64,000 nucleotides of DNA from an uncultured Chloroflexia bacterium (GCA_963828165.1 CAWHDR010000001.1:2816001-2880000); one strand, 5' to 3'. Counted from the stretch's first letter, positions 5,001 through 8,367 are shown. Numbers and translations: made by a program. Notes: a model not told the origin generated them from the letters alone.

Positions 5001-5612
5001 ATGAACCGCTCCCCCAACCTCTCCCGCGTGGCTGCCCCGGTGGCCGCGCTCTTCGCCGTTCTCGCCGTGCTCGTCGTGGTGGCCGGCGGGGCCTTCGGTC
5101 GGTCCGCCGACCCATCTCCGGCCCCCAGCGATCGCCCGTCGACACCGCCCAGTGTCGCCCCGAGTGCTCCATCGTCACCGCAGCCGACGGTCGACCCAAC
5201 GGTCGCGCCGACCGAGGACCCGGCAAACGGCTTCATCACGGTCGCTCTCGACAACCTGACCGATCACGACGTCTCGGTCGTCATCGACGATGAGACCGGC
5301 ATCCTCGACGGAGCGGTCTCCGGCAATCCCGGCGACGGCATGTCGGTCCGCTGGCTCGACGTGGAGGTCGACAATCTCGACTCGACGACACTACGCGTCG
5401 TGTGGGTCGGCCTCCCGCGCGATGAGGAGGTCCGGCTGTCCATCTCCGAGGCCGATGGCACCTATCGCCTCAGCTTCGTTCAGGCGGCCCCGCCGGCGTA
5501 TTCCGATGCCGTCGGCTACGACCGCATCCTCGTCCTGCGCTTCGACACGGACGTCAATGCCGACGATGTCAAGGTCACCTTCGATGAGGCCGGGGCCGCC
5601 AGCGCCGGCTGA
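5001..5612 (+). CDS. Secreted or membrane-anchored hypothetical protein with Pro/Ser/Thr linker
   Basis: AAGGAA RBS, N-terminal hydrophobic helix, P/S/T linker, beta-rich acidic domain. Confidence 0.7.
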   Translation: MNRSPNLSRVAAPVAALFAVLAVLVVVAGGAFGRSADPSPAPSDRPSTPPSVAPSAPSSPQPTVDPTVAPTEDPANGFITVALDNLTDHDVSVVIDDETGILDGAVSGNPGDGMSVRWLDVEVDNLDSTTLRVVWVGLPRDEEVRLSISEADGTYRLSFVQAAPPAYSDAVGYDRILVLRFDTDVNADDVKVTFDEAGAASAG

Positions 5613-5691
5613 CCCGTCCCCAGCAGGATCCATCGCCCGGCCATCTCGGTCGGGCGATGCCATGCCCGCCTTCCGCTGCCATCATCAGGAC

Positions 5692-6720
5692 GTGACCGTC
5701 CCGACCCTCAGCCGTCGCGCGTTGAACCGCGCGCTCCTGGCGCGCCAGCTCCTCCTCGAGCGCTCGACCCTCTCGATCCCCGAGGCGGTGGAGCAGGTCG
5801 GCGGCCTCCAGACACAGTACGCACCGTCCGGCTACGTGGGGTTGTGGACGAGGCTGCGCGATCTCCCGCGTGAGGCGCTCACGACGGCCCTCGAGGACCG
5901 AAGCGTCATCCAGGCGTCGTTGATGCGGGTGACGATCCACGTCGTGTCAAGGCGCGAGTACTGGCGCTATGCCCTCGGCGTCCGCCGGGCGCGACAGCAG
6001 TGGGCGCTGCGAACACCGGGCGGGGCAGGGGAGGCCGCGATGGTGGCGGCTGCGGCTCGGATCCGCGCGGCCCTCGCGGACGGCCCACGTACGGTCAAGG
6101 AACTCGGCGAGCTCGGTGCCGGGTTCGTGGGAAACCTCGGTCTCTGGGTCGACCTTGTCCGCGTCCCGCCATCGGGTACCTGGGAACGCCGACGGGCGGA
6201 CCATCTGGCCCTTGCGGAAACCTGGGTCGGCGAACCGGACGCGACGGAGGCAGAGGGCCTCACGCACCTGGTCCACGCCTACCTGCGCGCATTCGGCCCG
6301 GCAACGTGGCGGGACATCGCCTCGTGGGCCGGGATCACGGCCACTGACGCCAAGCGCGGCGGCGAAGGCTTGACCCTGACCGCCTATCGCGACGAGGACG
6401 GTCGCTCACTCGTCGACCTGCCCGACGCGCCCCTGCCCGATCCGGGGACGCCGGCGCCGATCCGGTTCCTGCCGCATTGGGACGCCAACCTGCTGGTCCA
6501 CGCGCGACGGACTCAGGTATTGCCCGAACCGTATCGACCGCTCGTATTCAGCATCCGCAAGCCGTTTTCCGTCGGGACCTATCTCGTCGACGGCGCCGTG
6601 GCCGGCGCCTGGTCCGCGAAAGACGGTCGGATCCTCCTGGACCCGTTCGAGGAGCTCTCGGCGAGCGATCGGCGCGCTGTAGAGCGTGAACGCGAGGCGC
6701 TGGAAGCATTCAGCGCGTGA
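5692..6720 (+). CDS. AlkZ-like DNA glycosylase (HTH_42 winged-helix family)
   Basis: LNRALLARQLLL, GLQTQ (QxQ catalytic motif), GLWTR, MRVTIH, YLRAFGPAT..D.A.WAG, RFLPHWD. Confidence 0.85.
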   Translation: MTVPTLSRRALNRALLARQLLLERSTLSIPEAVEQVGGLQTQYAPSGYVGLWTRLRDLPREALTTALEDRSVIQASLMRVTIHVVSRREYWRYALGVRRARQQWALRTPGGAGEAAMVAAAARIRAALADGPRTVKELGELGAGFVGNLGLWVDLVRVPPSGTWERRRADHLALAETWVGEPDATEAEGLTHLVHAYLRAFGPATWRDIASWAGITATDAKRGGEGLTLTAYRDEDGRSLVDLPDAPLPDPGTPAPIRFLPHWDANLLVHARRTQVLPEPYRPLVFSIRKPFSVGTYLVDGAVAGAWSAKDGRILLDPFEELSASDRRAVEREREALEAFSA

Positions 6721-6745: not shown

Positions 6746-7675
6746 TCATGACACGATCTCCACGATGTCGTTGTCGGCAACCATATGATCGCGCCCGACG
6801 CGCTGGCCTTCGAAGCGAGCCGACGTGCCCCAGACACGCGCGGCCGTGAAGCTCGCGCCCAGATCGTGATGGACCCAGTCGGCCACATCGGTGACCGTCG
6901 CGCCCGGATGGAGCGCGAGCGGTTCCTCGTCGACGGTGCCGCCCTTCCGCAGCCGAACACGGAGAAGGCCGGTCAGCCCCCAGACCGCGGCCCGAAAGGC
7001 ATCGAGCGACGCCTCGTCGATGATCGATACCGGGATCACATCGAGGTCCGGGAAGGCCGCCGCCAGGCGGGACAGGGAGCCCGGCCCGGCCTCGTCGGAC
7101 CGCGTCGCGGCGAGCAGCGCCGGTTTCTCGATGCCGGCGGCGGCGATCTCGGCCACGACGACCTCGAGCTCCGCGGGATCGGCGTCACTGCGGCAGCAGT
7201 AGACGATCGCATCGGCCGACCGCAGGACACCGAGCAGCGCCCGACCGCCACCCCGGTCCTCCGAGGCGCCCTCGATCAGCCCCGGGATCTCGACGAGCTG
7301 GATGAGCACGCCGCCGATGCGCGTGAGTGCGGGGACCGGTCGGAGGGTCGTGAACGGGTAGTCCCCGGTCTTGATCTGGATCTCGGACAGCGCCTGAAGC
7401 AGCGACGACTTCCCGACGTTGGGCGGCCCGACGAGGGCGATCTGCGCCGCGCCCTCTCGCCGGACGGCGATCGAGTCACGGTGGACGGCGCTCGCCCTGA
7501 CCCGCGTGTCCTCGATCTCGGACATGAGCCACTTGCGCAGGTCCGCGTACGGCCCGTTGCGATAATCCGGTAGCTCGCCGAGGAGCGCCTGGACCTCCCG
7601 GATCCGCTCCCGACCTTCCTTGCCTGTCAATCGACGCTTCGCCACCTGCGCGAACGTCCTGTGCGGCATCGGCAT
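6746..7675 (-). CDS. DRG/Rbg-like OBG-family GTPase with C-terminal TGS domain
   Basis: G1 GPPNVGKS, YPFTTL, PGLIEGA..RG.G, TGS ARVWGTSARFEGQRVGRDH; GAGGTAAGGAG RBS. Confidence 0.85.
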   Translation of the reverse strand: MPMPHRTFAQVAKRRLTGKEGRERIREVQALLGELPDYRNGPYADLRKWLMSEIEDTRVRASAVHRDSIAVRREGAAQIALVGPPNVGKSSLLQALSEIQIKTGDYPFTTLRPVPALTRIGGVLIQLVEIPGLIEGASEDRGGGRALLGVLRSADAIVYCCRSDADPAELEVVVAEIAAAGIEKPALLAATRSDEAGPGSLSRLAAAFPDLDVIPVSIIDEASLDAFRAAVWGLTGLLRVRLRKGGTVDEEPLALHPGATVTDVADWVHHDLGASFTAARVWGTSARFEGQRVGRDHMVADNDIVEIVS

Positions 7676-7689
7676 GCCGATCTCCTTAC

Positions 7690-7788
7690 CTCACGCGGAA
7701 CGACACGGCCCGCGCAGCCCGAGGGGGCTGCGACGGCGGCACGCGTCGTCCCGCCCCTTCCACCGACGCTGGTTCTGGAAGGGGCGGC
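7690..7788 (-). promoter_or_regulatory. Structured 5' leader (candidate attenuator) of the GTPase gene
   Basis: Perfect 12-bp stem 7751-7762/7776-7787; 8-bp stem 7713-7720/7725-7732; 13-bp stem with 2 G-U pairs 7695-7707/7742-7754 that overlaps the first stem. Confidence 0.6.
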
Positions 7789-7857
7789 TCAGCCGGTGAT
7801 GTCGAAGAGGGAGGCGAGCCAGGCGCTCTGCGCTTGCAAGCCGATCGGAGCGGTCAT
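7789..7857 (-). CDS. Candidate leader peptide MTAPIGLQAQSAWLASLFDITG (22 aa)
   Basis: ATG 9 nt after a TACGCT -10-like box; TGA directly abuts the 12-bp hairpin; below the ORF-track cutoff. Confidence 0.55.
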   Translation of the reverse strand: MTAPIGLQAQSAWLASLFDITG

Positions 7858-7953
7858 CGTGGCTGCAGCGTACACCGCTCTGCGATGCGGGTTGAACATC
7901 CCGCGGCGGTCGTGTGAGGCAGATAGGCCCGCGGACCGGACTACCGTGCGGCG

Positions 7954-8367
7954 ATGAAGACCTTGAAGGGCCTCGTGCTCATCTCCGCGATCGTCGCAGG
8001 CGGCACGCTGTCAGCCTGCAGCAACGCCCCGGGCGCGAGCCCGTCCCTGCCGGCCGTGTCCCTGCCCGCGGTCTCGATCGATCCGTCCGCGGCGGCCGGC
8101 GCCGTGGTCGCTGTCCTGGACCAGCTCGACTCCGAGATCACGGCCAACCAGACGGCAACCGGGCTGACGGTGGAGGAGCGTGACGCGCTCAAGGAGACCG
8201 TCGCCACGATCCGTGCCGCCGTCCAGACGGGCGACTTCTCTGCGGCGCAGCCCGCAGTGGACGAGCTGAAGGCAAAGGTGGCCGAGCTCGACGCGAAGCT
8301 CGGGACGGACGCCGGGACACGCCTGAAGGCCGCACTCACGCAGCTCGAGGCGCTCCTCGCCAGCTGA
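7954..8367 (+). CDS. Lipoprotein, helical, unknown function
   Basis: MKTLK-hydrophobic-LSAC lipobox; TACCGT box 6 nt upstream. Confidence 0.75.
   Translation: MKTLKGLVLISAIVAGGTLSACSNAPGASPSLPAVSLPAVSIDPSAAAGAVVAVLDQLDSEITANQTATGLTVEERDALKETVATIRAAVQTGDFSAAQPAVDELKAKVAELDAKLGTDAGTRLKAALTQLEALLAS

Follow-up and report, generated by a model that had tools for sequence, protein, structure and literature searches.

A conserved small open reading frame and RNA structure upstream of a bacterial DRG-like GTPase gene: a candidate leader for ribosome-controlled unmasking of the Shine-Dalgarno sequence

A leader in front of a GTPase gene

The gene for a DRG-like GTPase lies on the minus strand (7675-6746) of a 64,000-nucleotide (nt) stretch of DNA from an uncultured Chloroflexia bacterium (GCA_963828165.1 CAWHDR010000001.1:2816001-2880000), referred to here, at its full length, as the window. 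A 278-nt intergenic gap separates it from a divergent open reading frame (ORF; 7954-8367, plus strand) and holds all elements of a leader that a preliminary description of this DNA had proposed as a ribosome-stalling attenuator: a TACGCT box, a 22-codon upstream ORF (uORF), two RNA stems, an inner hairpin and a Shine-Dalgarno (SD) sequence, every one of which is present at the minus-strand coordinates given there. Comparison with orthologous loci leaves us highly confident that this is a genuine, translated and gene-specific regulatory leader. With more modest confidence, we favour a cis-acting mechanism that follows the logic of secM-secA, mifM-yidC2 and ermC, in which a ribosome lingering at the end of the uORF would unmask the SD of the GTPase gene. 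The parts of the leader and the gene that it precedes are as follows.

7867..7872, minus strand: -10-like hexamer TACGCT, read from the sequence, 9 nt 5' of the uORF ATG
7789..7857, minus strand: uORF of 22 codons plus TGA, reading MTAPIGLQAQSAWLASLFDITG; probably at the transcript 5' end or a few nt from it (leaderless type)
7819..7821, minus strand: Trp codon, exactly 10 codons before the stop, from the leader alignment
7804..7809, minus strand: predicted anti-SD tract in the uORF, codons 17-18, CTCTTC (consensus ATCTCC), from the minimum free energy (MFE) fold and the ensemble of the window and from covariation in relatives
7751..7787, minus strand: stem 1 (P1), a perfect hairpin of 12 base pairs (bp; 7787-7776 with 7762-7751) that begins 1 nt past the uORF stop
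within 7751..7787, minus strand: stem 1 loop of 13 nt, containing AGCGTC (7770-7765), read from the sequence
7743..7747, minus strand: GACGC word 3' of stem 1, complementary to loop GCGTC and also part of the stem 2 5' arm, from the alignment
7695..7754, minus strand: stem 2 (P2), 13 bp with two G-U pairs (7754-7742 with 7707-7695), from sequence, folding and alignment
7732-7713, minus strand: 8-bp hairpin inside stem 2, read from the sequence
7682..7692, minus strand: GTPase SD region GAGGTAAGGAG, read from the sequence; the GTPase ATG is at 7675
6746..7675, minus strand: DRG-like GTPase gene, 309 amino acids (aa), G domain and C-terminal TGS domain, N-terminus MPMPHRTF, from Pfam and solved relatives; start conserved

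Taken by itself the window makes a weak case, because the folding score of its 241-nt leader is modest (z = -2.86, with 3 of 200 shuffles folding equally well) and short inverted repeats are frequent in this G+C-rich DNA (51 pairs of at least 11 nt within 30 nt); the weight comes from comparison. A simple scan found no sigma-70 consensus promoter at the leader and, as the preliminary description had said, no U-tract or intrinsic terminator between the uORF and the GTPase gene. Searching the leader against Rfam 15 at E up to 10 returned three chance-level matches only (E 3.3-9; 15-16 bits against gathering thresholds of 80-88). Two other identities for the leader were considered and rejected: a tRNA-like structure, of which ARAGORN found none, and a repeated or mobile element, the leader being single-copy in its own genome.

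The regulated protein is DRG-like

Judged by its sequence, the downstream protein is DRG-like, as had been proposed: it combines an Obg-type G domain with a C-terminal TGS domain, and its nearest relatives among solved structures are DRGs. Pfam places MMR_HSR1 at residues 78-190 (E 3.1e-19) and TGS at residues 239-308 (E 1.4e-13). Among solved structures it comes closest to yeast Rbg2 (E 3e-28) and Rbg1 (E 1.3e-26), each aligning in two stretches that represent both domains, and both stand ahead of Obg (5.6e-16); the DRG/Rbg structures used in the comparison were 4a9a, 7nrc and 7rr5. At 309 aa the GTPase is shorter than the DRG/Rbg proteins of eukaryotes and archaea (~366-410 aa), and the gap between its G and TGS domains is about 50 residues, compared with about 116 in Rbg2. 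DRGs carry a domain named S5D2L inserted between the G domain and TGS; in the GTPase, Pfam found no extra domain at E up to 10. The protein reaches no curated NCBIfam cut-off, and the public names of its relatives are generic ('small GTP-binding protein', 'GTP-binding protein', '50S ribosome-binding GTPase' and, once, 'ribosome-interacting GTPase 1').

Among 8000 metagenome candidates scored, 6339 proteins were related at E <=1e-10. In sampled genomes the gene is rare and patchy, occurring in 8 of 151 Chloroflexota and 2 of 301 Actinomycetota, and the relatives belong to the Chloroflexota (Limnocylindria-like) and to some Actinomycetota. One review gives DRGs archaeal homologues, 'though not in bacteria' (PMC8629797), and the phylogeny section of a 2026 preprint includes bacterial Obg only and no bacterial Rbg (10.64898/2026.05.13.724932). 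We found no published account of this leader or of a bacterial DRG-like GTPase in the literature searched, subscription journals and supplements lying outside that search; the Limnocylindria papers among the matches listed all had ecological or taxonomic titles.

The start codon and N-terminus of the GTPase are conserved in its orthologues. At the start in the window the hexamer ATGCCG is duplicated (7664-7675, minus strand; Met-Pro-Met-Pro-His-Arg), giving two in-frame AUGs 6 nt apart, and this duplication is nearly invariant in all orthologues at both the nucleotide and the protein level.

The leader accompanies the gene across relatives

We collected 80 orthologous loci, one per species, of which 3 were truncated at the 5' end of the gene, leaving 77 with upstream DNA. 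By pattern search, the unit of uORF and hairpin could be recognised in 68 loci and in the window. A raw MAFFT alignment was made from 64 leaders, excluding the long-spacer loci L028, L033, L039, L041 and L051; since RNAalifold recovered only 7 stem 1 pairs from it, we built a covariance model consisting of the uORF core, stem 1 and the GACGC word that follows, and realigned the leaders to it (74 leaders, the long-spacer loci included). This model matches the window and 73 of the 77 orthologous loci with upstream DNA, 10 of which lay outside its seed. The preliminary description had named a conserved uORF and covarying structure upstream of orthologues as the test of its proposal; the uORF and the structure recur together at these 73 loci, and both stems carry compensatory changes.

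The association with the GTPase gene is specific by several measures. The element occurs once per genome, with a single copy in the genome of the window and one in each of three actinomycete genomes, and in the Chloroflexota sample it lies directly upstream of the GTPase gene in all 7 assessable genomes, the gene of the eighth being cut by the contig end. We also scanned metagenomes with a pattern that specified the hairpin arms and loop word alone. At least 120 stretches matched, with 80 loci among the matches listed; among these, the GTPase start follows 54-255 nt downstream of the hairpin in 76 of 78 assessable loci, and a core of Trp, nine codons and a stop stands directly upstream of the hairpin in 78 of 79. 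Comparison thus shows, at the level of sequence, a leader strictly linked to the DRG-like GTPase gene.

At four orthologous loci (L008, L021, L025 and L029) no leader element was found even with search filters off, the best score being 12.7 bits, which fits a regulatory and dispensable element. In L029 (1340-1500) 27 nt separate an upstream TAGGCT box from the GTPase start, an arrangement that looks like the result of deleting the uORF and both stems, with the promoter box fused to the SD; in L021 the GTPase gene begins 6 nt after another ORF; and L008 retains only the stem 2 3' arm and the SD. One isolated weak match to the model (G045:C6:94007-94075; 28.5 bits, E 4e-4) came from a Chloroflexota genome without a GTPase orthologue at E <=1e-40 and is probably a chance hairpin.

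A short uORF with a fixed Trp codon and stop

Within the leader the uORF is held to a strict layout. Its 39-nt core is ungapped in all rows of the alignment, with no insertions or deletions and, L056 apart, no in-frame stops. The Trp codon TGG is kept in 73 of 74 aligned leaders and in all 62 unique cores, always 10 codons before the stop, which is itself at a fixed place (TGA in 56 and TAG in 6 of the unique cores) and in every leader falls 0-5 nt from stem 1. Of the 62 unique cores, 54 end in Gly and the others in His or Phe, the residue before being Asn, Thr or Ser, and identical residues are encoded by unrelated codons (Arg by AGA, AGG or CGC; Ser by TCC, TCG or AGC; Thr by ACA, ACC or ACG). 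Many of the uORFs carry Arg-Arg-Pro before the Trp. The window peptide had no match in Pfam, and three uORF peptides had none in NCBIfam at E up to 10, peptides this short being hard to detect. In one leader, L056 (1341-1431), TAG replaces the Trp codon and the stem 1 3' arm reads AGAAG for GGAAG, suggesting either a leader that is decaying or inactivated or an error of sequencing.

Upstream of the Trp the uORF varies in length. The segment before the Trp falls into seven length classes (3, 4, 6, 8, 11, 12 or 16 codons), with an in-frame start always present, and the whole leader ORF spans 13-26 codons across relatives. In 71 of 74 leaders a TANNNT hexamer precedes the uORF start by 6-11 nt, shifting with the start codon in the short-uORF variants. 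SD-like motifs precede the uORF start in only 3 of 71 leaders, as against 67 of 71 within 16 nt of the GTPase start. A -10-like box so close to a start that has no SD suggests a leaderless transcript, and from this layout the uORF is likely to be a translated, leaderless or near-leaderless small ORF.

Two further possibilities for the uORF were set aside. Read-through into, or fusion with, the GTPase is unlikely, since the spacing between the uORF stop and the GTPase start ranges over 92-248 nt without being confined to multiples of three. A hairpin within the uORF 5' of the Trp codon, formed by the Arg-Arg-Pro...Asp-Ala codons, was rejected because its folding energy equals that of shuffles (mean z -0.01, n=53).

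The uORF complements the SD of the GTPase gene

The preliminary description had noted that a tract in the uORF could pair with GAAGGGG of stem 1. That pairing is possible in the window; by eye, without a count, the complementarity is not kept by the consensus tract ATCTCC, and the conserved partner of the tract is instead the SD of the GTPase gene. The consensus uORF codons +3 to +5 after the Trp (ACS AUC UCC) are an exact complement of the SD region GGAGAUSG, with CUC-UUC in the window, and at least 7 consecutive uORF:SD pairs can form in 34 of 74 leaders.

Changes in the third base of the Thr codon are matched at the position after GAGAU: among the 33 leaders with both words there are 16 C-G and 13 G-C combinations, 4 mismatches and no G-G, and among 39 unique metagenome leaders, in the matches listed, the same swap gives 13 C-G, 20 G-C and 6 mismatches. 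Cognate uORF:SD duplexes are predicted to be more stable than non-cognate ones (-19.5 versus -17.6 kcal/mol; none of 10,000 permutations as low). When the ribosome-free leaders were folded as ensembles, the main predicted partner of the SD was the uORF core in 44 of 74 and a more upstream part of the uORF in 6 (50 of 74 for the uORF in total), and otherwise a local tract (16), downstream RNA (7) or the stem 2 region (1). The window is one of the 44, with the uORF core as main predicted partner of the SD at 0.63, and its MFE structure pairs CUCUU (7809-7805) with AGGAG of the SD, so that the diverged peptide tail of the window would keep its anti-SD role. We conclude that comparison shows uORF:SD complementarity with compensatory changes in the Limnocylindria-type leaders.

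We next modelled the effect of a ribosome by masking its footprint with the uORF stop in the A site. Predicted accessibility of the SD rises in 38 of 74 leaders, falls in 5 and is roughly unchanged in 31, and its mean goes from 0.32 to 0.45.

Leaders of actinomycete type (L066, L069, L072, L073, L075, L076, L079 and L081) have a different uORF tail, for example ...RWRLEVFRQSH, often with a TAG stop. The predicted partner of the SD in these leaders is a local CCUCC tract beside the stem 2 3' arm and not the uORF, which itself carries GGAGG; the switch may be wired differently in this clade.

Stem 1 covaries, stem 2 more weakly

Stem 1 is supported by compensatory change. In the model-based alignment 91.5% of its cells are paired, and alternative pairs occur at several positions (CG66/UA8; CG58/GC16; and, innermost, CG13/AU12/UA10/GC7/GU4). 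Its covariation score is 0.130 compared with 0.057 in shuffles, none of 500 of which scored as high, and controls in which the stem was slid along the alignment reached at most 0.029. For stem 2, measured on the raw alignment, 77.3% of cells are paired against 26-70% in slid controls, and 24 compensatory cells were counted against 12.6 in shuffles; base swaps such as GCGGG:CCCGC, GCGAG:CUCGC and GCAGG:CCUGC can be followed by eye. Comparison therefore indicates that stem 1 covaries and lends moderate support to stem 2.

The two stems share GCGG in the window sequence, and the preliminary description had read this as competition between them. The relatives do not bear this out: the two outermost stem 1 pairs are unpaired in 13 and 31 of the 74 sequences, so that the stems overlap only at their junction, by 2-4 nt.

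The loop of stem 1 may take part in a further interaction. Conservation exceeds 90% both for its GCGUC word and for the GACGC that follows the stem, and the two words are complementary (97% of cells paired, 3 of them compensatory); in 69 of 71 metagenome leaders, among the matches listed, GACGC comes no more than 16 nt after P1. The A of GACGC pairs in 32 of 62 cells within stem 2, compared with 69 of 74 in the loop pairing. A loop-GACGC pseudoknot is possible; we put it no higher because only 3 cells are compensatory and GACGC is also part of stem 2.

A model for control by ribosome dwell

These observations suggest the following sequence of events. Transcription would probably start a few nt before a leader ORF of 13-26 codons that lacks an SD of its own. 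In RNA free of ribosomes, uORF codons +3 to +5 after the Trp would pair with the SD of the GTPase gene, and this long-range helix, closing a domain made up of stems 1 and 2, would mask the GTPase start site. A ribosome arriving at the end of the uORF would take up the anti-SD tract and so free the SD. By standard footprint sizes, a ribosome with the stop codon in its A site should cover the AUCUCC tract, and its first contact with stem 1 should come with about codon +7 in the P site; since the G+C-rich stem begins 0-5 nt past the stop, the ribosome would have to unwind stem 1 at a time when it covers the anti-SD tract. Its dwell at or near termination is probably prolonged by the conserved nascent chain (Trp, eight residues, Gly or His, stop), and synthesis of the GTPase would then increase whenever ribosomes linger at the uORF end.

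Several of our results weigh against this model. Some concern the peptide: codon-position entropy (1.01, 1.01 and 0.87) shows no third-position excess, so that part of the apparent peptide conservation may reflect a constraint on the RNA, entropy being an uninformative check of coding in G+C-rich DNA; the conserved Thr-Ile-Ser codons are the anti-SD tract itself; and the tail of the window peptide, SLFDITG, departs from the consensus TISNQNG. Others concern the pairing with the SD. The search for consecutive uORF:SD pairs takes the best of about 29 offsets, which favours pairs, and no more than 65.9% of the helix is paired in the raw alignment of 64 leaders, compared with 62.3% in shuffles, with slides of -1 and -2 reaching 60-63%. 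Placed on the GTPase tree, the G/C swap comes down to some 4-5 changes with 3 independent pairs, too few for a test, so Fisher values make the evidence look stronger than it is. For 16 of 74 leaders, most of them of actinomycete type, the predicted partner of the SD is a local upstream tract and not the uORF, and the modelled opening of the SD is modest, with none in 31 of 74. The strong conservation of stem 1, its loop word and GACGC is left unexplained by unmasking of the SD. Finally, the stall, its cause and the direction and size of its effect are things that we infer from conservation and geometry alone, and stress inducibility and an antibiotic link of the leader are, in the same way, inference only.

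What might make the ribosome linger? A study in yeast reports that Rbg1 suppresses prolonged pausing and that ribosomes in cells without it are denser at start and stop codons and in Arg/Lys-rich tracts (10.1101/2020.07.06.190082). Together with the Arg-Arg-Pro that precedes the Trp in many uORFs, this makes an autoregulatory loop an attractive reading: the uORF would be a 'monitoring substrate' whose end pauses the GTPase resolves, and low GTPase activity would prolong the pause, unmask the SD and restore synthesis. Attractive as it is, we consider this reading speculative and on balance unlikely to be right.

Alternative explanations

The leader could instead work by plain translational coupling, each passage of a ribosome briefly opening the SD, output tracking leaderless initiation and stem 1 slowing the ribosome slightly. 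This explanation needs only the best-supported features, the uORF:SD pairing and the leaderless-type start, and it sits well with a peptide that matches no known arrest motif or leader-peptide family. It gives no reason for an invariant Trp at a fixed 10 codons from the stop (73/74), for the conserved last residues (Gly in 54/62 cores, with Asn, Thr or Ser before it) or for a stop placed 0-5 nt from stem 1 in every leader, and we give it limited credence. The same fixed features bear on a sensor of Trp supply, in which scarcity of charged tRNA-Trp would cause a pause at the single Trp codon and so open the SD. The codon is indeed invariant and stands three codons before the anti-SD tract; yet it is the only one, a ribosome with UGG in its A site would by footprint geometry cover only about half of the tract, and neither the constant spacing to the stop nor the conservation of the C-terminal residues would be accounted for. 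Such a sensor strikes us as highly improbable.

A switch centred on the RNA would give the uORF an accessory role, with the domain formed by stem 1, its loop, GACGC and stem 2 binding either a small molecule or a protein; the protein could be the GTPase, whose TGS domain is of an RNA-binding type, and the gene would then regulate itself. The near-invariant stem 1 words CUUCC and GGAAG speak for it, as do the >90% conservation and 97% pairing of the complementary loop GCGUC and GACGC and the fact that GACGC is kept better than its stem 2 partner (32/62 versus 69/74 for its A). It would, however, need no translated fixed-frame ORF with a promoter-linked start, no Rfam family matches at E up to 10, and the covariation behind the pseudoknot is very small; we regard it as improbable. 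Transcription attenuation relieved by a ribosome stalled in the uORF, in the style of tnaC, hflXr or ABC-F genes, would make sense of a uORF stop that abuts a strong hairpin, and the preliminary description had raised its Rho-dependent form. But the scan found no U-tract terminator, the RNA past the stop is G-rich and tightly paired, which makes a poor loading site for Rho, and the comparative signal points to the SD, so that attenuation, whether intrinsic or Rho-dependent, seems very unlikely here. Set beside these explanations, unmasking of the SD by a ribosome lingering at the uORF end is the one that we favour.

Relation to known leader systems

The mechanism that we favour belongs to a known class; the peptide, the RNA and the regulated gene are new. 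In secM-secA and mifM-yidC2, RNA from the 3' part of an upstream ORF pairs with the next SD, and a ribosome held at the end of that ORF unmasks it. The leader described here resembles them in the pairing of the 3' RNA of the ORF with the SD and in a peptide conserved near its C-terminus. Surveys of arrest peptides reportedly target Sec/YidC genes. There is also a likeness to SecM in detail, a Trp about 10 residues before a Gly, as displayed by the SecM arrest sequence in a published account (PMC11669330). Unlike those of secM and mifM, the leader ORF has only 13-26 codons, is probably leaderless and stops right after its conserved residues; the gene that it would regulate encodes a GTPase and not a protein-export factor; the peptide has no signal sequence and no RAPP-type motif; and where those systems arrest ribosomes, stalling here is predicted from sequence comparison.

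Similar logic operates in ermC, where a drug-bound ribosome on the ErmCL leader drives a four-segment hairpin exchange. Common to both are a short leader peptide, alternative RNA pairings and a stalled ribosome that frees (in our case, would free) a sequestered SD; in contrast to ermC, the uORF pairs directly with the SD in most leaders by prediction, the regulated gene is no resistance gene and there is no evidence for a drug signal. The erm leaders are named in one article (PMC11264731). With TnaC and SpeFL the leader shares neither sequence similarity nor a plausible Rho site, and its read-out appears to be unmasking of the SD. In both of those systems the control is by Rho-dependent termination, with a known metabolite bound. 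The uORF systems of hflXr, ABC-F genes and whiB7 act by transcription attenuation with terminators. They too place a uORF before a ribosome-acting factor or a regulator of translation stress, induced in their case by ribosome stalling, but no terminator was found here, and the peptide, the structure and the regulated family differ. The regulated protein shares with eukaryotic and archaeal DRG/Rbg proteins the G domain and C-terminal TGS, and differs from them in being bacterial, rare, patchy in distribution and shorter, with a short G-TGS gap.

DRG/Rbg proteins have been thought of as archaeal and eukaryotic, and the rare bacterial DRG-like gene described here is nearly always accompanied by a dedicated leader. 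How DRG/Rbg GTPases act on paused ribosomes is still being worked out, and the design of the leader points to ribosome dwell time as its input. If the favoured mechanism holds, the 22-codon peptide with its RNA would be a compact, transplantable reporter for whatever the GTPase responds to; the peptide would form a new class among the few natural arrest or termination-pause sequences; and the leader would provide a clear case of leaderless-uORF regulation in poorly known soil lineages. Were the uORF in fact a monitoring substrate of the GTPase, the feedback loop would be the first of the arrest-peptide kind to govern a translation GTPase, and it would be direct evidence of DRG-type pause relief in bacteria.

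Neighbouring genes

The divergent neighbour on the other side of the intergenic gap (7954-8367, plus strand) is a 137-aa ORF whose N-terminus resembles a lipoprotein signal, with no significant Pfam or NCBIfam family. Downstream, an AlkZ-like DNA glycosylase gene (5290-6720, plus strand; Pfam 1.6e-58) converges on the GTPase gene, which therefore appears to be monocistronic.

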